A DNA stretch of 64,000 nucleotides from assembly GCA_028714635.1 (NCBI GenBank), contig JAQTLZ010000002.1, forward strand, positions 121,841 to 185,840, written 5' to 3'. Position 1 is the first letter of the stretch, and each line of letters opens with the position of its first letter. Under the pieces are notes generated by a model that was given only the letters and a program-made list of their open reading frames with translations, was not told where the DNA came from and searched no databases. The position numbers and the translations under genes are program-made. Positions 3,810-38,624 of the stretch are shown here, piece after piece. This DNA comes from Minisyncoccota bacterium. GTDB lineage: Bacteria; Patescibacteriota; Minisyncoccia; Phycocordibacterales; JAQTLZ01.

Positions 3810-3851
3810 TTTGAGTATTCAAGAACTATTCAATAGGATATACTTTCTCTC

Positions 3852-5030
3852 GTGAAAGATTTCATTCGCATTCTTAAATCGCTCATCTCGAAAAGAAATA
3901 TTGCCGGGATGTGCGGATTATTTCTCTTCGGCCTTTTTTTCTTTGGTTTTAGCGCGTTTCATCCGAAAGTTCCTGTGGTAGCGGAGCAAAAAGAAATTGA
4001 TCTGGAAAAAGAAGATCCGAAAACGCTTGTGAAAGCGGTGCGATCCGCCCAAGCTGTTAAAAAGGAAAAATATCTGGTTTCAGCCTCTACTCCGCAATTT
4101 GTACTCCTTTCTTTTGATGGTTCGAAATCAGTAGATATGCTTCGCGAGACCTTGGATTTTGAAAGTCTTCTCTCTCAAGAAGGAAAACCGCTTCACTTCA
4201 CCTATTTCATCAACGCTGCCTATTTTCTAGGCCAGGGTTCCGCGTACTTGTATCAAGCTCCGGGACAGCCGGCGGGGAAATCGCTCATCGGTTTTTCTGA
4301 TTACGTGGCAGACATCTCCCTGCGAGTGGAGGGGTTTAATAAAGCGCTTGAGATGGGAAATGAAGTCGGCTCGCATCTTGCCGGGCATTTCAACGGCACG
4401 AGCTGGTCTGAAGCAGATTGGAAGCAGGAATTCAATTCTTTCAATCTGCTTCTTATAAATATGCAGAAAAATAATCCTTCAGTTTCCATACCGCAGGTGA
4501 ATTTCGGTCCCGATACTATCGTCGGACTTCGGGCGCCTGATTTGGGCGTGAATGCATCGCTCTATAAAGTGCTTCATGAGTATCATTTTCTGTATGACGC
4601 GAGCGGAGTAGCGTCGCTTTTGTCCCGAGATAATTGGCCGAAGAAAGATGGCTATGGGCTTTGGCATTTTCCGCTTGGCCGCGTATCTCTGGGGAAAAAT
4701 CATGTTTCGACGATTTCAATGGATTATAATTTATGGATGATGCAGTCCAATGTTCAGGAAGAGGCGGTAAAGGGGACAGAGCTTTGGCAAAAATATAAGG
4801 ATGATGTTGTTTCTGCCTATATGGATTATTTCAATTCTAATTTCGCCGAGAATCGCGCACCTGTTATTATTGGGCACCACTTCAATAAATGGAATGACGG
4901 GGTCTACTGGGAAGCGATGAAGACATTCGCCGAGAGTGTGTGCGGGCGGGAGAATGTGCGCTGTGTGACTTTTAAAGAGCTCGTAGAGTATTTAAATACA
5001 GAAGGTCCTCCACCTCTCGCAACTCAATAA
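3852..5030 (+). CDS. polysaccharide deacetylase-like (NodB/CE4-type) secreted protein
   Basis: 392 aa with a GTG start. N-terminal TM/signal, FVLLSFDGSKS and VGSHLAGHF motifs. TATACT at 3839-3844 lies 7 nt upstream of the start. Confidence 0.6.
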   Translation: MKDFIRILKSLISKRNIAGMCGLFLFGLFFFGFSAFHPKVPVVAEQKEIDLEKEDPKTLVKAVRSAQAVKKEKYLVSASTPQFVLLSFDGSKSVDMLRETLDFESLLSQEGKPLHFTYFINAAYFLGQGSAYLYQAPGQPAGKSLIGFSDYVADISLRVEGFNKALEMGNEVGSHLAGHFNGTSWSEADWKQEFNSFNLLLINMQKNNPSVSIPQVNFGPDTIVGLRAPDLGVNASLYKVLHEYHFLYDASGVASLLSRDNWPKKDGYGLWHFPLGRVSLGKNHVSTISMDYNLWMMQSNVQEEAVKGTELWQKYKDDVVSAYMDYFNSNFAENRAPVIIGHHFNKWNDGVYWEAMKTFAESVCGRENVRCVTFKELVEYLNTEGPPPLATQ

Positions 5031-5037: not shown

Positions 5038-5046
5038 TGGTATACT
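5038..5046 (+). promoter_or_regulatory. extended -10 promoter giving a leaderless mRNA
   Basis: TGGTATACT ends 6 nt before the ATG at 5053. No Shine-Dalgarno sequence in between. Confidence 0.55.
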
Positions 5047-5052
5047 TCCGTA

Positions 5053-6720
5053 ATGACTCAAGCAGAAGCGCTGAAAATTTTAAAAACGGGAGCAAATATT
5101 TTTCTCACGGGAGAGCCAGGGAGTGGCAAGACGCATACTATAAATGAATATACGCGCTATTTGCGTCAATGCGGGATTGAGCCCGCTATTACCGCTTCGA
5201 CAGGCATTGCCGCGACCCATATCGGAGGAATGACCATTCATTCGTGGAGCGGGATTGGAATTCGGAAATTTCTCAATGGATATGATCTGGATAAAATTGC
5301 GACCAGCGAATATGTGGCAAAGAGGGTCCGCAAAGCCAAAGTGCTGGTGATAGACGAAGTCTCGATGCTTTCTCCGGAAACTCTCTCGATGGTTGACGCG
5401 GTGTGTCGGGAAGTGAAAGGGAATACTGACGCGTTCGGAGGAATGCAAGTGATTTTTGTCGGAGATTTTTTCCAGCTTCCGCCGGTTGTGAAAGCAGATG
5501 TGGAATCTGAAAGCCAGTTATTTGAAGAAGAAGCTCCTCCTCGCTTTGCATATGGTTCGCCTTCGTGGAGAAACGCGAAAGTGCTTACCTGCTATTTGAG
5601 CGAGCAGTACCGCCAGGATGATAGTGATTTTCTCTCGCTTCTCTCTGCGATTCGGCAAAATACTTTCGGCGACGCGCATAAAGAACATCTTGAAGCGAGA
5701 AAGATTGGAGAGAAGAAAATTTCAAAAGATGTGCCTCGGCTTTTTTCTCATAATGCGAATGTTGATCTTTTGAATGACCAGATGCTCGGAGCACTCTCTG
5801 AAGAACCGCATGTATATCTCATGACCTCGAGTGGGAAACCCTTTTTAATTGAGGCGTTAAAAAAGGGATGTCTCTCTCCCGAAAAACTTTCACTGAAAAT
5901 CGGCGCATCGGTGATGTTTACCAAAAATAATCCCAAAGAAGGATTTGTAAATGGAACACTCGGTACTGTTTCCGGATTTGAGTCGAGTTCAAATTTTCCT
6001 ATTGTACAACTTCGAAATGGAAAAAAGATCGTGGTAACTCCGCTCGAATGGTCCGTGGAAGAAAATGGAAAAGTGCGAGCGCAAATTTCACAGCTTCCTC
6101 TTCGTCTTGCATGGGCGATTACGGTGCATAAAAGCCAAGGGATGAGCCTGGACGAGGCGGTGATGGATCTTTCGCAGGTGTTTGAATACGGACAAGGATA
6201 TGTGGCCCTTTCCCGCGTGCGCCGACTTTCAGGATTGCATCTTCTCGGTTGGAATGCAAAAACATTTCAGGTGCATCCGGAAGTGCTCTCGAAAGATGAG
6301 TCATTTCGAATTGCGTCGGATGAGGCGGCAGAAATTTTCGGGAAAATTTCTGCCGCCGAGCTCGACAAAATGCACGACAATTTTGTGAAAATATCTGGAG
6401 GGAACAGGCCAAAGCCAAAGATCGGTAGCTCGGAAGTGAAAGGTGACCCCAGTAGCGAAGCTATGCTCGCTACGGGGCAAGGAAAGAAAACGCTCGAAAA
6501 AATAAGAGAAAAACATCCGAATGCCTATCGTAAATGGGATGAAGCCCAAGATAAACAACTCAAAGATTTATTTGCAGAAAAGAAATCAATCCCTGATCTT
6601 ATGAAATTGCTCGGAAGGAAAAAGGGTGCAATTCAGATGCGTCTTTTGAAATTCGGACTTATCGAGGATGATGGTTTTTCTTTAGCCTTTCAGAAGAAAA
6701 AAGCAAAAAAGAATGGATAA
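5053..6720 (+). CDS. PIF1/RecD-like SF1 DNA helicase with a C-terminal HTH-like tail
   Basis: 555 aa. Walker A GEPGSGKT, VLVIDEVSM, FVGDFFQLPPV, and TVHKSQG near the C-terminal core. Confidence 0.85.
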   Translation: MTQAEALKILKTGANIFLTGEPGSGKTHTINEYTRYLRQCGIEPAITASTGIAATHIGGMTIHSWSGIGIRKFLNGYDLDKIATSEYVAKRVRKAKVLVIDEVSMLSPETLSMVDAVCREVKGNTDAFGGMQVIFVGDFFQLPPVVKADVESESQLFEEEAPPRFAYGSPSWRNAKVLTCYLSEQYRQDDSDFLSLLSAIRQNTFGDAHKEHLEARKIGEKKISKDVPRLFSHNANVDLLNDQMLGALSEEPHVYLMTSSGKPFLIEALKKGCLSPEKLSLKIGASVMFTKNNPKEGFVNGTLGTVSGFESSSNFPIVQLRNGKKIVVTPLEWSVEENGKVRAQISQLPLRLAWAITVHKSQGMSLDEAVMDLSQVFEYGQGYVALSRVRRLSGLHLLGWNAKTFQVHPEVLSKDESFRIASDEAAEIFGKISAAELDKMHDNFVKISGGNRPKPKIGSSEVKGDPSSEAMLATGQGKKTLEKIREKHPNAYRKWDEAQDKQLKDLFAEKKSIPDLMKLLGRKKGAIQMRLLKFGLIEDDGFSLAFQKKKAKKNG

Positions 6721-7771: not shown

Positions 7772-7872
7772 AAAAACAGCTGAAACTAAACTGTTATCTT
7801 GTCGTGTTATACTAAGGGCCGTTCTGTCCTTTTTGCTGTTTGGCCTCGGAATCTCTCTTGAAAGGAGGGGTT

Positions 7873-8958
7873 GTGAAGAATAAAAGTGTCACACACCCTT
7901 CGGAAAGGGTGGTTTTGAAGCGTGTCGCTTCTGTTGTGCTTCATGTTTACGCTCTCATCATGCTTATTGCGGTGGGGCTTAGCATGCAAGCAGTGCTTTC
8001 CGCTGTTTCAGCGTATCTTTTCATAAGATGCGTTATCGTCATCGTCCAGTTCGAGCGTGAAATAAGAAGAACTGACGAGGGCAAGGAGCGCAAGCATTTG
8101 AAAAAAGGAGACCGGGCAAAGCTCGCTCCCATTAACTGGGTGCGCAGTATCGGTTTCTTTAGCGTACACGTCGTCGGAATTGCAGGGCCTTTTGTGGTTG
8201 GCTGGAGTTGGTGGGCGACAGGCCTTGCGGTCTTTCTCTACTACCTCCGGATGTTTTTCATCACCGGTTTTTACCATCGGTATTTTAGCCACAAAAGTTT
8301 CAAGTCATCTCGTCGATTCGTTTGTATTATGGCGCTCTGCGGGGCAAGCGCTCTTCAGAGGTCCGCCACTTGGTGGGCAGCGGTGCATCGATGGCATCAT
8401 GCTCATTCGGATCAAGATGAGTCAGACAGGCACTCTCCAGTCGTTTGGAATATATTTGAGACGCATTTCGGCTGGCTCAACAGAAAGGGCGCAAAAATAT
8501 TCAAGCCTCTTTCTGATGAGTTCATGCAGGACCCAGTCTTTGTGAAAAGTCAGAAGTATCCATGGGTGTATCTCCCGGCCGTCATTATGGCCCTGGGGTG
8601 TTACATCTTGGGCGTGGTCCTTTCACACTGGTTCTATGATGTGAGCGGTGGGCAATTGCTTATCGCGTTCTTCACAAGCACGACAGCTCTCTATCACGGC
8701 ACAGCCTTTGTGAACTCTATCACGCACATGATGGGCGAACGGTCTCATGATACGAAGGACAACAGCGGAGATGTGTGGTGGCTCGTACTCTTCGTTCTCG
8801 GAGAGTGGAAGCATAATAAGCATCATCACGATCCGAGTGCCGCAAAAGAGAGTGAATGCGATCCGACCTATTGGGGGCTCCTTGTCCTCGAAAGGCTGGG
8901 GCTCATTTGGGATTTGATCCCGGAAAAGGAGGAAAGAGATAAGTTAAGGGCTGCTTGA
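7873..8958 (+). CDS. membrane fatty-acid (acyl-CoA/acyl-lipid delta-9 type) desaturase, high-GC cassette
   Basis: Three His boxes: HRYFSH, HRWHHAHSD and HNKHHH. GTG at 7873 is preceded by AGGAGGGG (7863-7870). The track start at 7840 is less likely. Confidence 0.8.
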   Translation: MKNKSVTHPSERVVLKRVASVVLHVYALIMLIAVGLSMQAVLSAVSAYLFIRCVIVIVQFEREIRRTDEGKERKHLKKGDRAKLAPINWVRSIGFFSVHVVGIAGPFVVGWSWWATGLAVFLYYLRMFFITGFYHRYFSHKSFKSSRRFVCIMALCGASALQRSATWWAAVHRWHHAHSDQDESDRHSPVVWNIFETHFGWLNRKGAKIFKPLSDEFMQDPVFVKSQKYPWVYLPAVIMALGCYILGVVLSHWFYDVSGGQLLIAFFTSTTALYHGTAFVNSITHMMGERSHDTKDNSGDVWWLVLFVLGEWKHNKHHHDPSAAKESECDPTYWGLLVLERLGLIWDLIPEKEERDKLRAA

Positions 8959-8975
8959 AAAAGCGCCCTTTTTTC
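8946..8975 (+). terminator. rho-independent terminator overlapping the desaturase stop
   Basis: AAGGGCTGC..GCGCCCTT stem followed by TTTTTT (8969-8974). Confidence 0.6.
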
Positions 8976-8996
8976 ATTCTCTTTATGATATTCTAA

Positions 8997-9632
8997 ATGC
9001 ATATTTTCATTACTATGCCGGAGAAGAAAAAGAAAAAATCGAAACATATCCACGTCAAAGATGTCTATTTTGCGGATATGGGCGGGAAGATGAAAAAGGG
9101 ATTTGGACGCTCTCTCGTTAGGAAAATTTTTCATCGGCCTGTTTTTAAGCGCGAAATTCATCACAAGACTTTCTCGGCAGATTTTAGCGCTACAAAACTT
9201 CGTTGGTACTCCAATCTTTTGAATATGTTCTACTTGAAGCTCGATGGTACCGCTTCCTGTTTTTTTACCGATGAAGGAACGCTCGTGATTATTTTCATGG
9301 TTTGGGGAGATCCCGATGCGGAAGAATTTTTCGAAATGCCGGAGATGAAAGGTGAATTTGTGGAGGATAGGGAAGCGACCCAGAAGAAAAAGAAAAAGAG
9401 TTTGAAGGTGGATAAGGATTCAGTGAAGGAGGAAGTGAAAGATGACGGGTATCACCTTCAATATGAAGAGACGTATAAAGATCACGGAAAAGAAGTGAGA
9501 ATGTTTGAGCATGTGATTTATTCCGGAATTGATAAGCTGGTTTTCCGGGCGATTGTCCCACCGAAAGTTTTGCCGGAGACTCTTGATGATATTTTGGCGA
9601 TTGCAAAGTCGCTTAGAATAAAGGTAACTTAA
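8997..9632 (+). CDS. hypothetical Lys-rich protein
   Basis: 211 aa with no recognisable motif. TATGAT at 8984-8989 lies 7 nt before the ATG (leaderless layout). Confidence 0.6.
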   Translation: MHIFITMPEKKKKKSKHIHVKDVYFADMGGKMKKGFGRSLVRKIFHRPVFKREIHHKTFSADFSATKLRWYSNLLNMFYLKLDGTASCFFTDEGTLVIIFMVWGDPDAEEFFEMPEMKGEFVEDREATQKKKKKSLKVDKDSVKEEVKDDGYHLQYEETYKDHGKEVRMFEHVIYSGIDKLVFRAIVPPKVLPETLDDILAIAKSLRIKVT

Positions 9633-9646
9633 TAAAAGACAGAGAA

Positions 9647-9689
9647 GCCCTGCCCGACGAAGTCGGGCAGGGCTGTTGCGTTTTTTTTT
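9647..9689 (+). terminator. rho-independent terminator
   Basis: Perfect 12-bp stem GCCCTGCCCGAC/GTCGGGCAGGGC with a GAA loop, then a T-run at 9681-9689. Confidence 0.8.
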
Positions 9690-9770
9690 CGTAACGAGTA
9701 GGGTAAAGAGCGGAAGGTAACGGCGAAAACCTTTAATTTCGCTACTGTTTTTTGTGGGAGGGCTAGTAAT

Positions 9771-10526
9771 ATGTCGCCTGTGAATAGTGATAGGGCATAC
9801 GTGCCAATTTACTTGGCACTGGACAAGAAGGACTGGGAGCAAGCATCTCCGCTCCTTCGCACGCTCGGCAATCGCATTGATGGAGTCAAGATCCATCGCA
9901 TCTGGGATGAGCTTGGCGCGAAATCTGTTTCGATGATTCGCGACCTTGGTGTCCCTGATGCCTGGGTTGATCTCAAGCTTTTTGATACGCCGGACACCGC
10001 GGCCGAACGCGCCGAACAGGTCAAGAAAGCTGGCGCCAAAATTTTGACCGTACACGCCAAGGGCGAAGTCGAAATGATGATGGCTGCGGTCAAGAACGGT
10101 CCGGAACTGGTTCTCGCCATCACGGAACTTACTTCGCTTACGGCGGAGCAGGTGGAAGTGGGCGGTGGCCTCACGCCTAAATCGGCCGTGCTTCATTGGG
10201 CGCGTGTTGCCAAGCTGGGGACTGTTGGTGGAGTCGTTACTTCCGCACTGGAAGTGGGCATGCTCTCGAAACGACCGGAACTCAAGGGTTTCGTTCTGGC
10301 TGTCCCGGGCACGCGCTCTGCGGGCGTGGACGTCAACGACCAGAAGCGTTCGGATACGCCTTACAACGCGGTGCTTGCGGGCGCAGGACTTATCGTCGCT
10401 GGTCGGCAGGTGACTGCCGCGGAAGACCCCGTTACCGCTATCGAAGCGCTTCGGGAAGAAGTCAACAAGGCGAGTGATGAGCGGCTTCGTCTCTTGCAGG
10501 AGATGGGAAAGAAGAAAGTCGCGTAA
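9771..10526 (+). CDS. pyrF: orotidine 5'-phosphate decarboxylase
   Basis: 251 aa. LALD, VDLKLFDTPDT (DxKxxD), ITELTS, VPGTR..NDQKR..TP and VAGRQVTAAEDP align with type-1 PyrF. GGGAGGG Shine-Dalgarno site lies 8 nt upstream. About 67% GC in a spot count. Confidence 0.85.
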   Translation: MSPVNSDRAYVPIYLALDKKDWEQASPLLRTLGNRIDGVKIHRIWDELGAKSVSMIRDLGVPDAWVDLKLFDTPDTAAERAEQVKKAGAKILTVHAKGEVEMMMAAVKNGPELVLAITELTSLTAEQVEVGGGLTPKSAVLHWARVAKLGTVGGVVTSALEVGMLSKRPELKGFVLAVPGTRSAGVDVNDQKRSDTPYNAVLAGAGLIVAGRQVTAAEDPVTAIEALREEVNKASDERLRLLQEMGKKKVA

Positions 10527-10539
10527 CAACCCGGCTCAC

Positions 10540-10570
10540 CCCGCCCATCGGCATTGTGCCGACGGGCGGG
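10540..10570 (+). promoter_or_regulatory. GC-rich intercistronic stem-loop between pyrF and the PRTase gene
   Basis: 14-position stem CCCGCCCATCGGCA/TGCCGACGGGCGGG (one mismatch) with a TTG loop and no U-tract. The track start at 10556 lies inside it. Confidence 0.55.
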
Positions 10571-10606
10571 AAAGCCGAAGACAGAAGACAAAGAAAGGAG
10601 AGTACC

Positions 10607-11431
10607 TTGCATAAGGACCAAATAAGTCAGACGGCGACGTCTCTGATCCATTTCGATCGAGACACGCCTGTGCTGGAAATCCTCCGTCTCTGTGGTGGAG
10701 TCTACCTCTGCCCTAAGGATGCGGCGGGGAAACGTGTCGGCCCGCTCGTTGGGTACGCTGGAAAAAGCCCGCGCCTGAAGACTAATCTCGTGGGGGATAT
10801 CTACGCGAATTTCTCCACGGCCGAGCGCTACTGGCACGTCATGGCTGAGTTCGCGCGGCGTCTCGTCGAGAACCCGAGATTCCAGGAGATTCTTCCGAGA
10901 CTGGACGGTCTCTGTGGGATGCCCATGGGCGGGATTACATATTCGTCGCACCTTGCGCGAGCATGTGATCGTACGGGGATCTTTCTGGAAAAGCTGGTCA
11001 CCGCGGTGGCGAACCCGATCGAGGGGACGAAGGAAGAGTCCATTCTGGTGGCCGGTCGCTGCGAGATTATCCTTGGAGCCAACTACGCGATCGTCGAGGA
11101 CGTTACCAATAACTTTTCCACCACGCTGAAAGCGATCGGTCTGATCGAAAAAGCTGGCGGAAAGGTCATTGCCATCTGCAGTATCCTGAACCGTTCACCG
11201 AAGCATACGTCTGACTTTCCGCTTCCGGACGGTCGGGAAATTCCGGTCATCTCGGCTTACCAAGAGCCGTTCCCGGAATTTGAGACGGATGACGAGGCCG
11301 TTGCGGCGGACATTGCCGCTGGAAACGTGATCTGGAAGCCAAAGGAAAATTGGCCCAAGCTCATGACCGCGATGGATGCTGCGCGTGAGACGGCGCTAGC
11401 GAATCAGTCGGACAAGCCGTCCGGTTCGTAA
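10607..11431 (+). CDS. type I phosphoribosyltransferase (orotate-PRTase-like)
   Basis: PRPP-binding loop YAIVEDVTNNFST. TTG at 10607 lies 6 nt after AAAGGAGAG. Substrate is not determinable by eye. Confidence 0.6.
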   Translation: MHKDQISQTATSLIHFDRDTPVLEILRLCGGVYLCPKDAAGKRVGPLVGYAGKSPRLKTNLVGDIYANFSTAERYWHVMAEFARRLVENPRFQEILPRLDGLCGMPMGGITYSSHLARACDRTGIFLEKLVTAVANPIEGTKEESILVAGRCEIILGANYAIVEDVTNNFSTTLKAIGLIEKAGGKVIAICSILNRSPKHTSDFPLPDGREIPVISAYQEPFPEFETDDEAVAADIAAGNVIWKPKENWPKLMTAMDAARETALANQSDKPSGS

Positions 11432-11459
11432 GTTGTATTCGAATCAATTGTTTCTTAGT

Positions 11460-11493
11460 GCAGAGTCGCTCGCCCGGACTCTGCGCTTTTTTA
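11460..11493 (+). terminator. rho-independent terminator
   Basis: GCAGAGTC(11460-11467)/GACTCTGC(11477-11484), then GCTTTTTTA. Confidence 0.75.
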
Positions 11494-11522
11494 TTTGTCT
11501 GAATTTTGTTACAGTTGCCAGC

Positions 11523-12434
11523 ATGAAATCAGAACTCATGAGTTTCCACACGAAAGACAAGCTTGAATTGCCGGGGCTTTTATATGAACCAGCACGAAAG
11601 AGTAATAAAGTAGCCATATTTCTTCATGGAAACGGCAATGGATCTGTTTTTAATAATCCTGTTTTGCAAAATACTATTGGTGACGCGCTGACGAAAAAGG
11701 GTATTGCTTATTTCCCATTCAACAATCGCGGGTCTGGGTATATCAGGAGTTTCAAAAAAATGGTGGACGGAAAGAAAGTCCGCCGGAATCTTGGCATGGC
11801 ATTTGAGCTTATTAAGGATTGTGTGATTGATATAGATGCCGCGCTTGCGGCCCTGCGCAAGCGCGGCTACTCCGAATTCTACTTACTCGGTGTTTCGACG
11901 GGAGCGAACAAAATCTGCGTCTACAACTACTACAAACCGAAAAATATTTTCTCAAAATTTATTTTACTCGCTCCAGGCGACGATGTCGGCGGGTATCTCG
12001 ATATGTGGGGTCCGCAGAAATTCGGCGCAATGCTTAAGATGTCGAAAGATAAGATCAAAGCAGGGAAGGGCGACGAGCTTGTTCCGCAAAATCTTTCCAG
12101 CTACAACTTTATTTCATTTAAATCTCTGTATGACATGATCAATCCCGATGGGAACTACAATGTTTTTCCGTATTTTGAAGTTTTGCATAATCTCGACCTA
12201 ACGAAAAAGAAAAAAATTTGGCGAGAATACCGGAGTCTCAAAAAACCAACCCTTGTTCTTATGCCAGGAAGGGACGAGTATTGTTATGGAAAGATAAAAG
12301 AAGTAGTGAAAATGCTCAAAGGAAATGGCAGCGCCACGAATTTCAATTTCAAAATTCTTCCCGGCTCATTGCACGGATTCTGGAAAAAAGAAAAAGAATT
12401 GGCAAAAATTCTCGCAGATTGGATTTTTGGGTAA
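11523..12434 (+). CDS. alpha/beta hydrolase
   Basis: FLHGNGNG oxyanion region and GVSTG nucleophile elbow (GxSxG). ATG at 11523 chosen because the track start at 11433 runs through the preceding terminator. Confidence 0.7.
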   Translation: MKSELMSFHTKDKLELPGLLYEPARKSNKVAIFLHGNGNGSVFNNPVLQNTIGDALTKKGIAYFPFNNRGSGYIRSFKKMVDGKKVRRNLGMAFELIKDCVIDIDAALAALRKRGYSEFYLLGVSTGANKICVYNYYKPKNIFSKFILLAPGDDVGGYLDMWGPQKFGAMLKMSKDKIKAGKGDELVPQNLSSYNFISFKSLYDMINPDGNYNVFPYFEVLHNLDLTKKKKIWREYRSLKKPTLVLMPGRDEYCYGKIKEVVKMLKGNGSATNFNFKILPGSLHGFWKKEKELAKILADWIFG

Positions 12435-12437
12435 AAA

Positions 12438-12482
12438 TAAAGCGCGCATAAACATCTGGGAACGTAAGGTGCGCGCTTTTTC
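12438..12482. terminator. bidirectional terminator hairpin
   Basis: AAAGCGCGCA(12438-12447)/TGCGCGCTTT(12470-12479) with A-run and T-run flanks, between convergent genes. Confidence 0.55.
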
Positions 12483-14235: not shown

Positions 14236-14937
14236 ATGACCACTTTCGGCCTCATCCTTCTTTGTTTTTTTCTTTTTGTCGGCTACATTTCTATTTATCG
14301 AAGAAAAGATCTGTTTACTCCTACGCAGGATCGTATATTTTTCACGCATCTCGTTATCATCGTCTTATTTATTGCAGTGAGTATTGTGAATGCCTTTCAT
14401 CTCGTCGATTCGGTGAATGTGGGAGTCCACGATTTTCTGCAAACGTTTTGGAATTCGAGCTTTGATACGCCGATGATAATGGCTAGTTTCCTCGCCAGTC
14501 CTGAAACGCTTGCGATCCTTTCCTGCCTTCTCCTTATCGTCCTTCACTTTAGGCACGAGCGTACACTTTTCTTTTTCACTTTCATTTCGCTAGTAGGTGC
14601 CTTGGTTTCTAATCTCATTTTGAAAGATCTTTTCAAATTGGTTCGCCCTGCAGTTTCTCTCATTCCTGAAACTTTTTGGAGTTTTCCAAGCGGACATTCG
14701 ACGATGATCGTCGTGTTTCTTTCTTGTTTGTATTACTGCTGGACTCGGATGTATCCGAATGTGGGGAAATGGAAAAAGCAGGCCGCGCTCTTTGCCGTTT
14801 TTCTCCTTTCTCTCCTCGTTGGCTTCAGCAGGCTTTATCTCGGTGTTCATTGGCTCTCTGACGTCGTCGCCGGCTTTCTTCTCGGGCTTTTCTGGGTGAC
14901 TTTTGCATATTTGAGTCCTAGGCCAAAGTCTGTATAA
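14236..14937 (+). CDS. PAP2-family lipid phosphatase (undecaprenyl-diphosphatase/PA phosphatase-like)
   Basis: KLVRP, SFPSGHS and SRLYLGVHWLSDV motifs. ATG at 14236 is in frame with the track ORF starting at 14206. Confidence 0.8.
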   Translation: MTTFGLILLCFFLFVGYISIYRRKDLFTPTQDRIFFTHLVIIVLFIAVSIVNAFHLVDSVNVGVHDFLQTFWNSSFDTPMIMASFLASPETLAILSCLLLIVLHFRHERTLFFFTFISLVGALVSNLILKDLFKLVRPAVSLIPETFWSFPSGHSTMIVVFLSCLYYCWTRMYPNVGKWKKQAALFAVFLLSLLVGFSRLYLGVHWLSDVVAGFLLGLFWVTFAYLSPRPKSV

Positions 14938-14946
14938 TCTGGCTCA

Positions 14947-15813
14947 ATGATCCTTCTCGACGGAAAAAAAGTAAGTAAAGACAGGGCTCTTGAGCTGAAA
15001 GCGCAAGTTTCGGCTTTTAGAGTTGCTCCAACACTTGCCATTCTTCAAGTGGGGGATGATGAACGTTCGAGCGCCTATATCCGCCAGAAGAAACTTTTTG
15101 GAGAGAAAATTGGGTGCAAAGTGTTGCATGTTACATTTGAAAGCACTGTCTCGCATTCTGACATTATTGAAAAGGTAAGGGAATTGAATGCTGATATATC
15201 TGTCCATGGAATTATTTTGCAGTTGCCAATTCCTACTAATCTCGATTCGCGCTCTATTATTGAGGCGATTGATCCGAAGAAAGATGTAGACGGACTCCAC
15301 TCTGAAAACGCGAAAAAACTTACGGATGGAGATGTAAGCGGATTTATTCCTGCAACAGCCAAAGGGGTGATATCACTTCTTGATGCGTATAAAATTCCAA
15401 TTGCGGGAAAGAAGGCAACGGTAGTGGGACGCTCGGCTCTCGTGGGTACTCCGACAGCACTTTGTCTTACAAATCGCGGCGCGAATGTGACAGTGGTACA
15501 TCGCGCAACTGTGAATATTCCCGCAAAAACAAAACAAGCTGACATCCTTGTGGTTGCGGCAGGACATGCAAAGCTTATCGACGCTCGTCACGTTTCGGCA
15601 GGTCAGAGCGTTATTGATGTAGGAATCAATTTGGTGACGGGAGAAAAACTTGAGGATGAAATTCCCAAGAAAAAGTTGGTGGGTGATGTGGATTTTGATG
15701 AGGTGAAAGATATCGTTGGGGCTATTTCTCCGGTACCGGGAGGAGTGGGGCCGATGACTGTTCTTTCTTTGTTTGAAAATCTTATCCTCGCCTACGAAAG
15801 GGCTATTAATTAG
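14947..15813 (+). CDS. folD: bifunctional methylenetetrahydrofolate dehydrogenase/cyclohydrolase
   Basis: 288 aa with full-length FolD-like sequence (YIRQKKK-type N-terminus, GIILQLPIP, PVPGGVGPMT). TATAAT at 14933-14938 lies 8 nt before the ATG. Confidence 0.9.
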   Translation: MILLDGKKVSKDRALELKAQVSAFRVAPTLAILQVGDDERSSAYIRQKKLFGEKIGCKVLHVTFESTVSHSDIIEKVRELNADISVHGIILQLPIPTNLDSRSIIEAIDPKKDVDGLHSENAKKLTDGDVSGFIPATAKGVISLLDAYKIPIAGKKATVVGRSALVGTPTALCLTNRGANVTVVHRATVNIPAKTKQADILVVAAGHAKLIDARHVSAGQSVIDVGINLVTGEKLEDEIPKKKLVGDVDFDEVKDIVGAISPVPGGVGPMTVLSLFENLILAYERAIN

Positions 15814-16778: not shown

Positions 16779-16847
16779 GTTGACTTCTTTTTTGAAAAGA
16801 GTACTATATATACGAACCCCGCGGGGTGTTTTTTAATCCAAAAAAAT

Positions 16848-17027
16848 ATGTCAAAACTCACTGAATATGTTAAAGACACACAAGCAGAATTGAAGCATGT
16901 AAGCTGGCCGACACGAAGCCAAGCTATTGCTTTTACTGTTGTTGTTATTCTCATTTCTATCGTCGTATCATTTTTCCTTGGACTTTTCGATTCACTTTTT
17001 CAGTATTTGCTTTCACAAATCGTTTAA
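16848..17027 (+). CDS. secE: preprotein translocase subunit SecE (59 aa, below the ORF-track cutoff)
   Basis: Hand translation gives MSKLTEYVKDTQAELKHVSWPTRSQAIAFTVVVILISIVVSFFLGLFDSLFQYLLSQIV. Canonical position upstream of nusG. Confidence 0.85.
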   Translation: MSKLTEYVKDTQAELKHVSWPTRSQAIAFTVVVILISIVVSFFLGLFDSLFQYLLSQIV

Positions 17028-17709: not shown

Positions 17710-18132
17710 ATGGCAAAGAAAGTAACAAAAAAATTGAAGCTTGTGATCGCCGGGGGAAAGGCAAACCCAGCTCCACCAATTGGCCCTGCGCTTGGTCAGG
17801 CTGGTATTAACATTGGGGAGTTCGTCACCAAGTTCAACGCTGCAACCAAGGATATGATCGGAGACCTCGTTCCCGTACAGGTTTTTGTATACGAAGACCG
17901 AACATTCTCTTTTGTCACCAAGACTCCTCCCGCATCGAGCCTTATCATGAAGGCGATCAAGATCGACAAAGGTTCAGGCAAGCCAAACACCTCAAAAGTA
18001 GGAAAGATCAGCCGAGCGCAGATCAAAGCAATTGCAGAAAAGAAACTTCCTGATTTGAATGCGAATGATTTGGCTGGGGCTATGAAGATTATTGAGGGAA
18101 GCGCCCGCTCAATGGGGGTTGATGTGATCTAA
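17710..18132 (+). CDS. rplK: 50S ribosomal protein L11
   Basis: 140 aa. [19 protein letters not shown] signature. Confidence 0.95.
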
Positions 18133-18224
18133 ATCACATCAACCGACCTTTTGAGACAGAATTCCGCGTATGCGCGGAAATTATGTCCAAAAGGTGTACT
18201 GCTCCTGTAAGGAGTTGATGTGAT
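18118..18224 (+). ncRNA. copy B of the GUACWG/UGUAA motif with flanking triple repeat
   Basis: GTTGATGTGAT (18118-18128, end of rplK), its complement ATCACATCAAC (18133-18143), P-a ACCTTTTG/CAAAAGGT (18146-18153/18188-18195), inner hairpin TTCCGCG..CGCGGAA, GTACTG 18196-18201, CTCC-TGTAA-GGAG 18202-18214, then GTTGATGTGAT again (18214-18224). Confidence 0.6.
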
Positions 18225-18240
18225 TGGATAAATAATGATA

Positions 18241-18278
18241 AAAAGCCCCGCGCCGTAAGGAGCGGGGCTTTTCTTTTT
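18241..18278 (+). terminator. rho-independent terminator
   Basis: GCCCCGC(18245-18251)/GCGGGGC(18262-18268), then TTTTCTTTTT. Confidence 0.8.
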
Positions 18279-18297
18279 CCTGTGATATAGTATTTTC

Positions 18298-20943
18298 ATG
18301 GAAAATTTTACTCCTAAAAATCCAGCCGAACTCGAACTTCAGCTCCAGAAGGCCAGCCAAACTCTTGGAGAATCTATTGCCGTTCCTTCTAAAATAGCAG
18401 ATACGCTTGGTATTTCTTTAGAAGACCTTAAGGTCAAGTTTCCTCGACGATACGAGGCGTATCTCAAGCTTATCCGAGCTGAGAAAAACAACCAGGAAAT
18501 TCCGCAAGAAGATCTCGAACATTTTCAAAAATGGATTCGAGCACTTAACAATCTTGATCGTTATATAGAATCACAAAAGACCGAAATCGGCAGAACCCTT
18601 CGTGAAAAACAAGTAGGCGTTTTCGAGGATATGAGGGATTTCGTGGAAGAGGGTGGCCAGGCTGGTTACGTTAAATTACCTACGGGATTTGGTAAGACTG
18701 TCATTTTCTCTCAATTCGTAGAGGCTCTTGGCTTACGTACACTTATCGCAGTCCCCAAGAAGAATCTTGTCCACCAAACAGCAAAAAGCCTTGAACGGTT
18801 CACTGATCTTGATGTTGGAAAACTGTATCAATATGCCAAAGAGCACGATAAGCCAGTGACGGTTAGTACATACCAATCGATGATAAAGGAAACTGAAGAT
18901 GGAGGATTAAAGCCGGAAGAGTACGACTGCCTTATCTTGGACGAAGCGCATAAAGCACTTGGGCCAAAAAGTGTTCACACCATTGAAAAGTTTGATCATG
19001 CGCTCCGGCTCGGATTCACAGCCACTCCGCAATATTCTGAAACAAAAGGAGTGCAAGATCTTTTGGAAACAGAAATCCACAGCATCTCGATCAAAGAGGC
19101 TGTGGACGATGGGGCGCTTTCCTCCTTTTCGGTCATTTTAGCAAGAACTAAAGTAGACCTTTCGAAAGTAAAGGTGAAATCTGACGGAGAATATGATGAA
19201 AAAGATTTGGAAAAAGCCATAAACGTAGCTTCCCGCAATATGGCTGCAATCAATCTTTATAAAAAGATGTTTAATGGAAAACACGCAATGGCCTATTGCG
19301 CTGGTGTCGAACATGCCCGGGAAGTTGCACGACTTTTCAACGAAGCTGGCATCAAAAGCGTAGCGGTCGCAGGTGAAGACCATCTTTCGGAAGAAGAAAT
19401 GTTGGATATCTTTGAAAAATTCCGTTCAGGAGAGATCAAAGTGATTACCAATGCTGATATTTTTGTCGAAGGATTCGATGAGCCGAAAGCTTCTGTGTGT
19501 CTCAATTTGCGCCCAACCGCATCACCGGTCGTGGCAGAACAGCGGGGCGGTAGAGTTTTGAGACTAGATCCTTCCGATGAGAATAAGCACGCGTTTATCG
19601 TTGACTTTGTTGATGAGGATGAGAAGGCAGATTCCATAAATATTTCTTTTGCAGAAGTTGCGGAAGCTTCTGAATTTCCTCCGAGGACAAACTCGCGTCT
19701 CGGAGAGGTCACTCCAGATCAAACTGAATCAGTTTCTCGCGAGAAAAGCGATATTGTCATCGAAGGGCTGGAGCTTGTAACTGATCCGAATGAAGTTATG
19801 AGGCTCGTACAGAACAAGGCGTCCAGAAAAAAAGGAACAAATGCCGAGCTAGAAGCTCAGGAAATACCGAAATGCCCGGAAGGATGGCTTGCCGTTTTGT
19901 ATTTTTCTGATGACCAACATAAAAAATATGGTTTAAAAAGATATATGGAACGTTCCATAATTTCTAGGGTAGAGCGCAAAAACGCGCATCTCTTCGGTCA
20001 ATTTAGAAGCGAGCGAAAAACGCAAGATACAGAGTGGTTTTTGTCGCCTGAAGCGCAGGCTCTTATTGAAAAGGATATGGCTTATCATGCGGGGTGGGAC
20101 TTGAAAGAGAGAGGATATACTTCTGGGCTTGAGCTCAGTAAAAGATTCGCTCTTTTTAGAGAAAAATTTCGACATTTGGAAGATGAAATATCAGAGGCGG
20201 ATCCGCAAGCGATAATTACCCGTACCTATCAGAGATTTTATTCTGCGGATGCAATAAAAGAAATTGAGGCTGTTTATGGCAAGTTTGCTCCAGAGGGATG
20301 GATTTATCGGGCGGATATCTTCCGTAAATATTTTGGCGGTAGTAAAACTGGGGGTGACGCAGGGAACAAGTTGGTGGAAAAGTTGAAGAAAGAGATGCCT
20401 GATGAAGTCGATGTGTTTGTGAATAGGCCAACTGGCCATAGTTTAGAGTTCTATTCGCCTCGTTTTGTTGAAGAGTTTGGGAAGAGAGATATAACCAGTG
20501 TCTACAAAAGCAAAGAAGAAAAAGCAAAGCGCATCGAGGATAAGAAGCGGGAAGGTCCTCCTTCGGGGTGGTTTCCTGTGAAAGATATTGTTATTTTGTG
20601 TCGAATTAAGGAACCTTTCCTCAGGCGCAAATTGAATGATATGGAGTTTTTGCACGATAATGAAATTAAAAATCTCGCTTTCGGCTTTAAGACGAACATA
20701 CTCTGTGCCACGGCAAAAATAATTCGCCAAATTATCCTGGATGATTGTAAACGTATCAAAACGGGAGAGCCGCCAGCTGGCTGGCAATCAACAGATGAGA
20801 TTTTACAGGCAAGAAGCTTAGAACTGCAAGATTTCTACTATAAACTTCTTTCTTTGCTGCCGACTCCAGAGACTATGAAGAGATATACAAAGAAAGGTGT
20901 CACTGACTACTATTTCAGTCCTGATTTTTTGGCAAAGTTATAA
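18298..20943 (+). CDS. SF2 DEAD/DEAH-box (ResIII-type) helicase with a repeat-containing C-terminal extension of about 430 aa
   Basis: Motif I PTGFGKT, motif II LDEAHKA, motif III FTATPQ, plus a helicase-C region. TGATATAGT -10 box ends 6 nt before the ATG. Confidence 0.8.
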   Translation: MENFTPKNPAELELQLQKASQTLGESIAVPSKIADTLGISLEDLKVKFPRRYEAYLKLIRAEKNNQEIPQEDLEHFQKWIRALNNLDRYIESQKTEIGRTLREKQVGVFEDMRDFVEEGGQAGYVKLPTGFGKTVIFSQFVEALGLRTLIAVPKKNLVHQTAKSLERFTDLDVGKLYQYAKEHDKPVTVSTYQSMIKETEDGGLKPEEYDCLILDEAHKALGPKSVHTIEKFDHALRLGFTATPQYSETKGVQDLLETEIHSISIKEAVDDGALSSFSVILARTKVDLSKVKVKSDGEYDEKDLEKAINVASRNMAAINLYKKMFNGKHAMAYCAGVEHAREVARLFNEAGIKSVAVAGEDHLSEEEMLDIFEKFRSGEIKVITNADIFVEGFDEPKASVCLNLRPTASPVVAEQRGGRVLRLDPSDENKHAFIVDFVDEDEKADSINISFAEVAEASEFPPRTNSRLGEVTPDQTESVSREKSDIVIEGLELVTDPNEVMRLVQNKASRKKGTNAELEAQEIPKCPEGWLAVLYFSDDQHKKYGLKRYMERSIISRVERKNAHLFGQFRSERKTQDTEWFLSPEAQALIEKDMAYHAGWDLKERGYTSGLELSKRFALFREKFRHLEDEISEADPQAIITRTYQRFYSADAIKEIEAVYGKFAPEGWIYRADIFRKYFGGSKTGGDAGNKLVEKLKKEMPDEVDVFVNRPTGHSLEFYSPRFVEEFGKRDITSVYKSKEEKAKRIEDKKREGPPSGWFPVKDIVILCRIKEPFLRRKLNDMEFLHDNEIKNLAFGFKTNILCATAKIIRQIILDDCKRIKTGEPPAGWQSTDEILQARSLELQDFYYKLLSLLPTPETMKRYTKKGVTDYYFSPDFLAKL

Positions 20944-24376: not shown

Positions 24377-24446
24377 AGTAGGGTAATTTCTTTTCTTATT
24401 ATTTTCAAACTGTAAACCTCTTACGAAATACTATATACTATTATCT

Positions 24447-25040
24447 ATGTCAGAAGCTAATATAAAAAAGATCTTAAGCAATACTGCTGATCTGAAAACT
24501 CGTTTTATCGGTGATTACAAGGAATTAAAGAAAATCGTCGACACATTTAAAAAAATCGGTTATCGAATTGTTTTGACTCAAGGCGTGTATGACCTTATCC
24601 ACGAAGGCCACGCAGCTTATCTTGAAAAAGCTCGCTCTTACGGAGATCTTTTGATTGTCGGCGTTGATTCTGATGAACTCACGAAGCAGAGAAAGGGGCC
24701 GAATCGCCCTATAGTTCCGCAACAAGAAAGAATGAAGATGCTTGTTCATTTACGGCACGTTGATATTGTGACGATACGCGAAGCGCATCACAAGATCGGC
24801 GATCTTATCCGTCTCGTGAAGCCTGATGTGCTCATTGTTTCGAAAAGCACCAGCGATTTTACGAACAAAATGGTCAACGAATATACGCCGTATTGCAAAA
24901 AAATTGTCTCTCTTATGCCGCAGGCAACCACTTCGACATCAGCTCGCGTTAGAAATCTTACTCTCGAAGGAGCAGAGAAACTGGCCGGAGAGATCTCCAA
25001 ACTCACTGAAAATTTCATATTTAAGATCAGGCAAGCGTAA
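24447..25040 (+). CDS. cytidylyltransferase-like nucleotidyltransferase (TagD/RfaE-domain-II type)
   Basis: 197 aa. GVYDLIHEGHAAYL (HxGH) and GVDSDE. TATACT at 24434-24439 lies 7 nt before the ATG. Confidence 0.75.
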   Translation: MSEANIKKILSNTADLKTRFIGDYKELKKIVDTFKKIGYRIVLTQGVYDLIHEGHAAYLEKARSYGDLLIVGVDSDELTKQRKGPNRPIVPQQERMKMLVHLRHVDIVTIREAHHKIGDLIRLVKPDVLIVSKSTSDFTNKMVNEYTPYCKKIVSLMPQATTSTSARVRNLTLEGAEKLAGEISKLTENFIFKIRQA

Positions 25041-27281: not shown

Positions 27282-27345
27282 TGCAAGTATTATAGAGGGT
27301 TTTAAAAAGAAAAGAAAATCGCCACAATGGGTGCCCTCGCTATAC

Positions 27346-28249: not shown

Positions 28250-28293
28250 ATCCGCTAAACAGACATCCGATTTGTTTAGCGGATGTTTGTTTT
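28250..28293 (+). terminator. rho-independent terminator
   Basis: Perfect 12-bp stem ATCCGCTAAACA/TGTTTAGCGGAT, then GTTTGTTTT. Confidence 0.8.
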
Positions 28294-28396
28294 CCGGCGT
28301 TTTTTTATACAAAAAACATGCTAATATGGAAGAAATTAAGCATTTCTATGATTTAACTCCCGAAAGCCGAATATTACTCGATAATCAGCCATTTCT

Positions 28397-30000: not shown

Positions 30001-30048
30001 ATTATTTCTTTTTTCCCAAGAAGTGTCCATTTTGCTAGTATTTTAGGT

Positions 30049-30723: not shown

Positions 30724-30738
30724 AGGTATCATCTAGCA

Positions 30739-33036: not shown

Positions 33037-33045
33037 TATACATAT

Positions 33046-33953: not shown

Positions 33954-34000
33954 TATTTTTCTTGTTTGCGCAAGAGGTATAACTTGCTACTATTAATGCT

Positions 34001-38585: not shown

Positions 38586-38624
38586 ATTTGTGGTATAATC
38601 CACTACAATCGTTTCTTATTCCCC

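Follow-up and report, generated by a model that had tools for sequence, protein, structure and literature searches.

Extended -10 promoters at start codons and predicted leaderless genes in Candidatus Paceibacterota

In the genome studied here, transcription from extended -10 promoters of the σ70 type likely begins on the AUG of the gene that follows or within a few bases upstream of it, giving leaderless mRNAs. In the window, by which we mean the whole stretch of 64,000 nucleotides that was analysed, about 15 of 68 genes and some 30% of transcription units are predicted to be leaderless on this basis. The host is a member of Candidatus Paceibacterota (Parcubacteria, CPR) in which roughly one fifth of the genes are probably leaderless. 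The leaderless reading of these genes, put forward in the original prediction and drawn from promoter geometry, is supported by the enrichment of the -10 box next to start codons, by the promoter features of the box and by its specificity for ATG. The spacing pattern between box and start codon is confirmed as real and well above chance.

Results

Box-proximal starts in the window

The twelve -10-like boxes and start codons of the original prediction all proved to be correctly placed on re-examination. The gap, counted from the last T of the box to the start codon, is 6 nt at six of these sites, 7 nt at five and 8 nt at one; eleven of the start codons are ATG and one is GTG (position 3852). 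Four further candidates were identified, bringing the total to 16 sites in the window, of which 15 have ATG and eight have an extended TGn element. The sites described below lie on the plus strand except for thyA and ftsK.

Four boxes stand right behind strong terminator hairpins, which leaves no space for another promoter between hairpin and gene. TATGAT of a hypothetical 211-aa protein gene (8984-8999, gap 7, ATG 8997) is preceded by a hairpin at 8946-8970 (-13.9 kcal/mol, z -2.6) with a U-tract behind it. The extended -10 box TGATATAGT of an 881-aa helicase gene (18283-18300, gap 6, ATG 18298) has the rplK terminator immediately 5' of it (18241-18272, hairpin -24.2 kcal/mol, z -4.5), and the terminator at 47634-47668 (hairpin -25 kcal/mol, z -7.8) ends 5 nt before the extended -10 box of tatD, TGTTAAAAT (47674-47692, gap 7, ATG 47690). 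The fourth is the extended -10 box TGGTACACT (59512-59529, gap 6, ATG 59527) of a 52-aa ORF that is linked via ATGA to a 1080-aa gene at 59682; a terminator lies upstream at 59455-59480, and the alternative start codon GTG 59488 falls within its U-tract.

Sequences resembling a -35 element accompany two of the boxes. At folD, TTGAGT at 14911 is separated by a 16-nt spacer from a perfect TATAAT at 14933-14938 (site 14933-14949, gap 8, ATG 14947), a box that also includes the stop codon of the upstream gene. At the gene of an AI-2E family transporter, TTGAAA at 43856 is found 17 nt ahead of the extended -10 box TGATATGAT (43876-43893, gap 6, ATG 43891). The extended -10 box TGGTATACT of a RecD-like SF1 helicase gene (5038-5055, gap 6, ATG 5053) occupies the 22-nt spacer behind the upstream gene, TATACT precedes a cytidylyltransferase-family gene that is divergent from the DHFR gene (24434-24449, gap 7, ATG 24447), and tmk has the extended -10 box TGCTAGTAT (30033-30051, gap 7, ATG 30049). 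The gene of an HTH_17 DNA-binding protein is preceded by TATAAT (63433-63447, gap 6, ATG 63445), with operator-like repeats at 63390-63428. As neither 59527 nor 63445 is the first start codon of its ORF, both were chosen in the original prediction by means of the box.

The four added candidates include thyA on the minus strand, where TATAAT at 27294-27289 is followed at gap 7 by ATG 27281 (27279-27294). The Pfam ThyA domain starts 11 residues past this ATG, and the TTG at 27380 that opens the longest ORF would add 33 residues, none of which match the profile. Also on the minus strand, TATGAT at 55564-55559 precedes ftsK at gap 6 (55550-55564), with ATG 55552 being the third ATG in a ATGATGATG run. 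The remaining two are TATCAT ahead of an HD-domain protein gene (30727-30741, gap 6, ATG 30739), with the tmk stop codon 15 nt upstream, and the extended -10 box TGCTACTAT of a gene for a hypothetical 149-aa protein (33985-34003, gap 7, ATG 34001).

Two sites are of lower standing. TATACT at 3839-3844 precedes the gene of a hypothetical 392-aa membrane protein at gap 7 (3839-3854); no earlier start codon precedes its GTG 3852 in the ORF, and the N-terminus has basic residues followed by a TM helix, yet confidence in this site is lower, given that -10 boxes in the clade show no enrichment ahead of GTG. TAATAT at 33034-33039, ahead of a hypothetical 110-aa protein gene (33034-33048, gap 6, ATG 33046), is ambiguous and possibly coincidental, since it is built in part from the argS stop codon TAA 9 nt upstream. 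The gene is absent in the relative L001.

Enrichment of the box next to start codons

For the window, each start was set blindly at the first start codon in its longest ORF (n = 69). TANNNT is found at gap 6-7 of 13 of these 69 starts, against 3.3 expected (Poisson P = 3.7e-5; background mean 1.63 per position over the other upstream positions), and TGNTANNNT at six, where 0.31 would be expected (P = 1e-6). The combinations TGNTANNNT-N6-ATG and TGNTANNNT-N7-ATG have eight matches in the window compared with 3.1 expected from shuffles, and in seven of the eight the ATG is that of a gene start (1964 ATGs, both strands; binomial P = 6e-10). By chance, about 3-5 of the 69 starts should have some TANNNT at gap 6-8, and single non-extended cases may therefore be coincidental, chiefly that at 33046. 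A generic two-hexamer σ70 scan of 60 kb gave promoter-like sites not in excess of shuffles; as the -35 element is too weak for such a scan, positional analyses were used instead.

The comparison set consisted of 79 related Paceibacterota loci (1.25 Mb). Of the 657 genes in these loci that are preceded by 30 nt or more of sequence, 9.3% have TGNTANNNT at gap 6 against ~0.3% at other positions, and 54 of the 58 loci with at least six testable genes contain one or more box-proximal starts. After TGNTANNNT at gaps 6, 7, 8 and 9, ATG was counted 112, 62, 34 and 41 times in the relatives, with GTG, TTG and other codons at background.

Such a pattern might in principle be an artefact of AT-rich intergenic composition, upstream stop codons and a choice of starts guided by the box itself. 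An upstream stop codon does lie within two of the twelve originally predicted boxes, two of the starts were picked using the box, and the gene-centred TANNNT profile is inflated at the in-frame gaps 0, 3, 6, 9 and 12 because an in-frame TAA or TAG sets the ORF boundary. This inflation was handled by means of stop-free motifs and a promoter-centred count, and the peak persists in both. In the relatives, TATNNT, in which no in-frame stop is possible, is found at gap 6-7 in 7.3% of genes against ~1.2% elsewhere, and extended -10 boxes without a possible stop in 2.4% against ~0.1%. The promoter-centred count, which registers an ATG opening an ORF of at least 60 codons after TGnTAnnnT and uses neither gene-start calls nor ORF boundaries, gave 115, 65, 36 and 44 cases at gaps 6, 7, 8 and 9 versus ~10 at other spacings, a roughly 10-fold peak; across the tests on the relatives the peak stands 10- to 30-fold over background. 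The blindly defined window starts retain their significance, and the identical script applied to 100 kb of E. coli returned no peak. Taken together, the stop-free, promoter-centred, blind-start and E. coli tests largely refute an artefactual origin of the pattern, which we regard as highly improbable.

The box-before-ATG signal is clade-wide among related Paceibacterota: its sequence architecture, enrichment, promoter-like features, ATG specificity and recurrence in the clade are directly observed. The original prediction had named a lack of positional enrichment of the box beside starts as evidence against itself; such enrichment is present in the window and in the 79 related loci.

Start codons and orthologues

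The boxes could also be true promoters that serve ordinary short leaders, with the real start codons farther downstream and the proteins correspondingly shorter. CPR proteins are divergent, and the genes at 3852, 8997, 33046 and 59527 have no family match by which to fix the N-terminus. Downstream starts would, however, leave unexplained why ATG is enriched exactly 6-7 nt from the box if that ATG is non-functional, and they are at odds with the protein evidence. Profiles of FolD and TatD align from residue 1 and the dTMP kinase profile aligns with the tmk product from residue 5; ThyA and the HTH protein likewise fit the box-proximal starts, and the N-termini of orthologues line up with the box-proximal ATGs. 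We therefore consider downstream starts to be quite improbable. Gene calls in GCA_028711105.1 give the same 224-aa tmk product and the same start for the gene at 34001.

Boxes recur at gap 5-8 in the relatives, in 8 of 17 FolD orthologues and 8 of 10 orthologues of the AI-2E transporter. In L001, the closest relative, the orthologue of the gene at 30739 has TATGAT at gap 6 and that of the gene at 34001 has TGTTATTAT at gap 6. As judged from these orthologues, the box-start architecture is kept despite sequence turnover.

Promoter character of the box

The unconstrained positions of the aligned sites in the relatives yield a TATAAT consensus with T-15/G-14 and a weak T-35/T-34/G-33, this weak -35 TTG being placed at 17-nt spacing from the -10 box. 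Position -1, ahead of the A of ATG, is a pyrimidine in 73% of the aligned sites, and the modal position of the box places the canonical start site on that A. Box frequency varies with the spacer, from 3-6% of genes at spacers of up to 9 nt to 12-21% at longer ones. At spacers of 10-29 nt, where 13-14% of genes have a box, the promoters would have to lie inside the 3' end of the preceding gene.

This persistence at short spacers would also be compatible with a non-SD translation signal in the 5' UTR, such as an A/U-rich standby or S1-binding site of the Bacteroidetes "group B" type, with the promoters located farther upstream. Upstream regions in the relatives are generally A-rich and G-poor, and Shine-Dalgarno (SD) sites are essentially unused, which means that leadered genes need some other signal. 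Against a role in translation, the box has the features read by σ70 (TA...T, TG at -15/-14, TTG 17 nt upstream and Y-1/A+1), its modal position sets the canonical start on the A of ATG, and it is enriched before ATG only. Tightly coupled genes seldom have the box, in contrast to the group B motifs, which stand ahead of every gene (PMC6028130). Four boxes lie directly behind strong terminators, and the same motif is found 20-40 nt ahead of the starts of other genes, a position in which it is only explicable as a promoter. A translation signal thus appears improbable, and the evidence supports the motif acting as a promoter rather than a ribosome-binding site.

Leadered genes and use of Shine-Dalgarno sites

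Highly expressed core genes had been cited in the original prediction as lacking GGAGG upstream. This is borne out, as the 20 nt ahead of the start codons of secE, nusG, rplK, recA, efp, rpsF, rpsR and glyA are free of GGAG, GAGG and AGGA, but these genes are not leaderless and have leaders without an SD site instead. The secE promoter, TTGACT-16-TACTAT at 16780-16807, is followed by an SD-free leader of ~35 nt and ATG 16849 (16780-16851, plus strand); nusG and rplK downstream of secE are likewise without SD. A hairpin in the secE leader was considered as an attenuator and dropped, being weak (z -0.3). A second SD-free leader, of ~19 nt, is predicted behind TGGTATAAT at 38591-38599, which lies 25 nt from ATG 38625 (38591-38627, plus strand); in the relatives, orthologues of this family have a -10 box at gap 5-8 in 28 of 33 cases.

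In the window, SD motifs are no more frequent than chance would give, with three 5-mers found and 1.3 expected (P = 0.15). They are at chance level among the relatives too, where SD 4-mers precede 50 of 657 genes and a positional peak before operon-internal genes is absent. GGAG, GAGG and AGGA are missing from the 12 nt that lead up to each of the 16 box-proximal starts; at 3852, an AGGA abuts the upstream side of the -10 box (gap 13) and would be outside the predicted transcript.

The sharp contrast that had been drawn with SD-led high-GC cassettes stands in part: SD-led genes do occur there, but strong SD sites are also found outside the high-GC block. A block of 54% GC contains GGGAGG 9 nt ahead of ATG 9771 (9756-9773, plus strand), the start of an OMP decarboxylase/HUMPS family gene, and AAGGAGA at 10595 ahead of TTG 10607. 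The gene itself spans 9771-10526 on the plus strand, and a minus-strand ORF of 369 aa in the high-GC block (9420-10529) was rejected as spurious. Other SD-led genes are a fatty-acid desaturase family gene with AAGGAGG 4 nt ahead of GTG 7873 (7862-7875, plus strand), one with AAGGAG 8 nt ahead of ATG 41942 (41928-41944, plus strand), in which the motif is kept in L001, and a similar case with AAGGAG at 47329 ahead of TTG 47341. Given these few strong, conserved AAGGAG sites, the anti-SD of this organism may be intact.

In the window and in 40 relatives, inspection of the rplK neighbourhood shows rplK without an adjoining rplA, followed by a terminator and then unrelated genes. An E. coli L1 query (E ≤ 1) detected no uL1 homologue in the window and 80 rplK-neighbourhood loci, while an E. 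coli L11 query gave 41 matches. Searches for 16S rRNA, by Rfam in the window and by the conserved 1492 site in the fetched loci, were negative.

The glyA upstream ORF and stop/start overlaps

A 24-codon upstream ORF at 28326-28400 does end in an ATGA overlap with the glyA ATG at 28397 as originally described, but it is probably untranslated. The extended -10 box TGCTAATAT at 28319-28327 (leader region 28319-28400, plus strand) overlaps the ATG of this ORF at 28326, which would thus lie upstream of the transcription start. The glyA leader is unstructured, with no match to an Rfam family and no riboswitch, and in the upstream regions of glyA from ~40 relatives the alignment offsets are too variable for conservation of the ORF to be judged.

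The overlaps reported between internal genes were all recovered, with ORF distances of -4 and -1: ATGA at 1800-1803, 33375-33378 (plus strand) and 59682-59685, and TAATG at 25038-25042, 53307-53311 (minus strand) and 62922-62926, with the ATG of each TAATG numbered 25040, 53309 and 62924. In the relatives, distances of -4 in 27 and -1 in 14 make up 41 of 707 co-directional pairs. Stop/start overlaps here are real but of ordinary frequency, and are a general prokaryotic feature.

Discussion

In the mechanism that we propose, a σ70-type RNA polymerase holoenzyme would recognise TGnTAnnnT (consensus TGnTATAAT), the extended -10 element, largely or wholly without help from a -35 element and would start transcription 7 nt past the last T of the box. 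That start would be the A of ATG at gap 6 and would fall 1-3 nt before the ATG at gaps 7-9, so that the 5' end of the transcript is predicted to be 5'-AUG. A transcript that opens with AUG has no space for an SD site. By analogy with the leaderless mRNAs of E. coli, mycobacteria and Deinococcus, the ribosome and initiator tRNA would bind the 5'-terminal AUG directly. We place the transcription start by the canonical distance from a -10 box; both this position and the way in which ribosomes are recruited are inferred. The remaining genes of the window are of three kinds. Some are internal to operons and have short spacers or stop/start overlaps; others, namely secE-nusG-rplK, rpsF, recA, efp and glyA, have short, A/T-rich, G-poor and SD-free leaders; and a small minority have a strong AAGGAG(G), in several cases within DNA of atypical composition.

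For Paceibacterota and other CPR genomes, the pattern offers a practical rule by which start codons can be assigned; in the window, reliance on the longest ORF misplaces the start of thyA, of ftsK and of the genes at 59527 and 63445 at the least. It also defines what the promoters look like, TGnTATAAT plus a weak -35, in a group without genetics and nearly without cultures, which should help in the design of expression tools and in reading operons in MAGs. A candidate answer is provided as well to how initiation sites are chosen after loss of the anti-SD, namely by the mRNA 5' end, which apparently serves about a third of transcription units.

In the uL1-lacking, anti-SD-poor branch of Paceibacterota, the streamlined ribosomes are often without bS21, have a short bS1 and are missing uL1 and uL30. 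We raise, tentatively and with more doubt than confidence, the idea that this branch may have dropped SD pairing almost entirely, the leaderless AUG 5' end being left as the main sequence-defined signal, with unstructured A/U-rich leaders or reinitiation serving the other genes. If this were true, the ribosomes of the branch would be natural counterparts of leaderless-specialised ribosomes, which to our knowledge are known from stressed E. coli only, and the group would serve as a living model of the proposed ancestral 5'-end-dependent initiation.

A comparison with known systems shows both likenesses and significant differences. Parcubacteria that lack uL1 and the anti-SD belong to the same phylum-level group as the genome studied here, in which SD motifs are likewise unused. 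In the work of Tsurumaki et al. 2022 (RNA 28:1041, PMC9297842), no more than 48% of Parcubacteria had the CCTCCT anti-SD, and its losses overlapped the uL1-lacking group; their study covers the rRNA and ribosomal-protein side only, and the selection of initiation sites is not described there. The Bacteroidetes-type group B resembles the present case in having little or no SD and A-rich, G-poor regions before starts. It differs in that its motifs are found ahead of every gene, operon-internal genes too, and do not qualify as promoters (PMC6028130); the box described here is promoter-like and is seldom seen before tightly coupled genes. Coupling by termination-reinitiation at ATGA and TAATG may operate at the six overlaps in the window, and the -4/-1 peaks recur in the relatives. 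For leaderless expression in CPR, we found no description in the open-access literature, only mentions in reference lists and a passing remark on YchF.

The closest parallel is with group C of the GeneMarkS-2 classification, the leaderless bacterial genomes, defined by a Pribnow box at a distance of 6-8 nt from the start codon (PMC6028130). In the group C genomes of Actinobacteria and Deinococcus-Thermus, the genes concerned are the first of their operons, with ~25-50% of operons leaderless (PMC6028130). Like the group C representatives studied by dRNA-seq, M. tuberculosis and Deinococcus deserti, the genes described here combine the same Pribnow spacing with absence of SD and, as predicted, an RTG at the 5' end. 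Unlike group C, in which the other genes use SD, SD motifs here are at chance level; the genome is a small CPR genome of 44% GC rather than that of a high-GC actinobacterium, and its promoters are mostly of the extended -10 type. GTG starts are common among mycobacterial leaderless genes and, in contrast, are not enriched in the clade of the window. As the mechanism is well known in Actinobacteria and Deinococcus, the advance made here is one of taxonomic scope and not of kind.

Promoter-like boxes at start codons

The original prediction that core genes here are frequently leaderless rested on twelve −10 boxes placed 6-8 nt before a start codon, and all twelve boxes and start codons lie exactly where they were placed, with that spacing. 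For a count that avoids this selection, we used blind starts, the first start codons of greedily chosen longest ORFs, of which 69 were usable. At 13 of these starts TANNNT ends 6 or 7 nt upstream, where other upstream positions average 1.63 each (P=3.7e-5), and the extended form TGNTANNNT stands at a gap (the nucleotides between the last T of the box and the start codon) of 6-7 before six, against 0.31 expected (P=1e-6). The literal pattern TGNTANNNT-N6/N7-ATG has eight matches on both strands versus 3.1 in shuffled sequence, and seven of the eight are gene-start ATGs, among 1964 ATGs (P=6e-10).

Further candidates are thyA (TATAAT 27294-27289, ATG 27281, minus strand), ftsK (TATGAT 55564-55559, ATG 55552, minus strand), and the genes starting at 34001 (TGCTACTAT at 33985) and 30739 (TATCAT at 30727). 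Two members are weak: gene 33046, which is missing from the closest relative, L001, and has the argS stop codon within its box, and gene 3852, which starts with GTG. By a scripted count supplemented with 8997 and 14947, which the script overlooked, about 15 of 68 genes have a strong box at gap 6-8, which corresponds to about 30% of the approximately 43 genes standing first in a transcription unit. Alignments to the FolD, TatD, and dTMP kinase profiles begin at residues 1-5 of the proposed products, the box-proximal ATGs are compatible with the ThyA and HTH_17 domains, and tmk, 33046, and 34001 have identical starts in the independent gene calls of assembly GCA_028711105.1, which encodes an arginyl-tRNA synthetase identical to that of the window. 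The window genes are housekeeping genes, with products far under the NCBIfam curated cut-offs for equivalent families; its RNA genes amount to one tRNA-His, and an Rfam search of the window returned no rRNA or further families.

Enrichment in related loci

Relatives were gathered via the window's arginyl-tRNA synthetase, giving 79 loci (1.25 Mb, 1081 genes) from species-representative genomes, the best at 75% identity. Loci with a named lineage are mostly Paceibacterota, Parcubacteria, or Patescibacteria, others are named only "bacterium", and a subset automatically labelled uncultured Saccharibacteria or Pseudomonadales was taken as mislabelled. On this basis the window is assigned to a Candidatus Paceibacterota (CPR) bacterium. 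A scan of these loci found the −10 motif positionally enriched next to starts, as the leaderless reading anticipated. TGNTANNNT stands at gap 6 in 9.3% of the 657 genes with at least 30 nt of upstream spacer, versus about 0.3% at other positions. Of all 2529 occurrences of TGNTANNNT, 115, 65, 36, and 44 are followed at gaps 6, 7, 8, and 9 by an ATG that begins an ORF of 60 codons or more, versus about 10 at other gaps. At least one such box-preceded start is present in 54 of the 58 loci having at least six testable genes, where TANNNT lies at gap 6-9 in 35% of genes and the extended form in 15.5%.

Longest-ORF starts inflate TANNNT at gaps 0, 3, 6, 9, and 12, because such a start necessarily has an in-frame TAA, TAG, or TGA upstream. 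That these stop codons are the sole source of the peak is ruled out by three observations. TATNNT, which cannot hold an in-frame stop, still peaks (7.3% at gap 6 versus about 1.2%), as does a stop-free extended −10 (2.4% versus about 0.1%); the peak persists in the promoter-centred count, which is independent of ORF boundaries; and the same script run on 100 kb of E. coli gave a flat profile with no peak.

The architecture recurs in orthologues despite unconserved flanking sequence, being found for the AI-2E transporter (8/10), the 38625 family (28/33), FolD (8/17), ArgRS (20/56), and IleRS (13/33). The boxes of the L001 orthologues of 30739 and 34001 differ in sequence and keep the same position. 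For the 38625 family, a conserved 646-aa DUF11-containing family, nearly all relatives show a promoter close to the consensus TGTGnTATAAT; its leader measures 0-5 nt in most relatives and about 19 nt in L001 and the window (38591-38627, plus strand), a case of one gene changing between leaderless and leadered states during evolution. In L001 (4128-4130) maf directly follows argS; the 110-aa hypothetical gene that separates the two in the window (33046-33378) marks a recent gain by insertion, or a recent loss, at this operon junction. In the IleRS itself (gene 34514-37984, plus strand; 1156 aa), a His_Phos_1 histidine-phosphatase domain (residues 504-666) splits the class I catalytic domain into its two halves; GCA_028711105.1, which has an identical gene, is annotated with this arrangement as well, and the orthologue of L001 is of similar length (1166 aa).

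A probable promoter rather than a ribosome-binding site

A conserved box so near the start could in principle serve the ribosome, and the evidence points instead to a promoter. When gap-6 sites are aligned on the box, the free positions are T/A/A, yielding TATAAT, with T at −15 and G at −14 (an extended −10), a weak T-T-G at −35 to −33 with a 17-nt spacer, and 73% pyrimidine at −1, ahead of the A of ATG; Y-R is the usual start-site dinucleotide. With a gap of 6, the hexamer spans −12 to −7 counted from that A, which is the canonical σ70 geometry. In the relatives, enrichment after the box is confined to ATG and does not extend to GTG, TTG, or near-cognate codons, as expected for translation from a 5'-terminal AUG. 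The box precedes 3-6% of genes that overlap the gene upstream or follow it at 9 nt or less, and 12-21% of genes with longer spacers, with a maximum at 30-59 nt. The window boxes at 8984, 18283, 47674, and 59512 lie directly 3' of strong hairpin terminators, each with a U-tract (z −2.6 to −7.8), so that any long leader would need terminator read-through. The same motif occurs 20-40 nt upstream of other genes, among them secE, IleRS, 38625, and glyA, where it can only be a promoter.

Repeats accompany two of the promoters. Upstream of the HTH_17 gene (ATG 63445; region 63390-63438, plus strand) stand two copies of the decamer TAGTTAACAT, at 63390 and 63419, the first inside the palindrome GTTAACATATGTTAAC (63392); the copies overlap the −35/spacer of the TATAAT promoter and look like an autoregulatory operator. 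At a distance of about 35-60 nt upstream from the −10 box of ftsK, a tandem array of three and a half octamers, TAAAGTTG TAAAGTTT TAAAGTTA TAAAG (55598-55620, minus strand), may be a regulator-binding site or UP-like element.

Shine-Dalgarno sites and leadered genes

AGGAG or GGAGG occurs within −16 to −4 of three blind starts in the window versus 1.3 expected (P=0.15). Among the relatives, SD tetramers precede 50 of 657 genes with a positional rise of at most 2- to 3-fold, and with no such rise before operon-internal genes; a few loci (L030, L009, and L008) appear to use SD. Textbook sites in the window are AAGGAGG-4-GTG 7873, GGGAGG-9-ATG 9771, AAGGAGA-6-TTG 10607, AAGGAG-8-ATG 41942 (conserved in L001), and AAGGAG-6-TTG 47341. 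The contrast drawn with SD-led high-GC cassettes is thus borne out by 9771 and 10607, although SD sites also occur outside that block. The block (about 9646-12480; 54% GC versus a 44% background) is bounded by strong terminators, that at 9646-9674 being bidirectional, and was probably horizontally acquired. It holds an OMP-decarboxylase/HUMPS-family gene and an unknown gene with a TTG start, the two bearing the SD sites, along with an α/β-hydrolase; a long minus-strand ORF at 9420-10529 was rejected as spurious.

As predicted, SD-like tetramers are absent before secE, nusG, rplK, recA, efp, rpsF, rpsR, and glyA. The expected high expressers secE-nusG-rplK, rpsF-ssb-rpsR, recA, efp, and glyA are not leaderless; their leaders lack SD.

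The glyA leader and gene overlaps

The 24-codon ORF said to end on the glyA start is present. Its ATG (28326-28328) shares two bases with the end of an extended −10 box, TGCTAATAT (28319-28327), which lies just downstream of a terminator (28250-28284). If TGCTAATAT is the glyA promoter, transcription would start near 28334, inside the uORF, leaving the uORF ATG outside the mRNA. The leader of about 64 nt is unstructured and matched no Rfam family. The 10-mer ATTTCTATGA occurs in it twice (28342-28351 and 28391-28400, plus strand), the second copy including the glyA start and the first yielding a two-codon mini-ORF (ATG ATT TAA). Six ATGA or TAATG stop/start overlaps were likewise located as described, and termination-reinitiation at these junctions would be plausible; in the relatives, 41 of 707 co-directional pairs have distances of −4 or −1, no commoner than in prokaryotes generally.

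Comparison with known systems

The leaderless interpretation of the boxes is supported at the level of sequence, every computational test able to refute it having come out in its favour. No description of leaderless expression in CPR bacteria was found in the open-access literature searched, and the predicted leaderless starts would extend a known gene architecture to Paceibacterota. Tsurumaki et al. (2022) detected an anti-SD motif in just 48% of Parcubacteria, with losses overlapping the uL1-lacking subgroup and bS21 often absent, and left the choice of initiation sites unaddressed (PMC9297842). In the rplK neighbourhoods examined, rplK has a terminator and unrelated genes downstream of it, not rplA, in the window (17710-18300; terminator 18241-18272, then a helicase) and in 40 relatives, including L004, L013, L002, and L010. 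An E. coli L1 query found no homologue (E≤1) in the window or in 80 loci; an E. coli L11 query found 41 sequences. This is consistent with the window genome belonging to the uL1-lacking Parcubacteria subgroup, and leaderless starts would offer a mechanism to a lineage in which loss of the anti-SD has been reported.

Bacterial leaderless transcription has a published signature, GeneMarkS-2 group C, in which a Pribnow box lies 6-8 nt ahead of an operon's first gene; it is frequent in Actinobacteria and Deinococcus-Thermus and covers 25-50% of operons (PMC6028130). The window genome has this signature in common with group C and, unlike group C, its remaining genes do without SD use.
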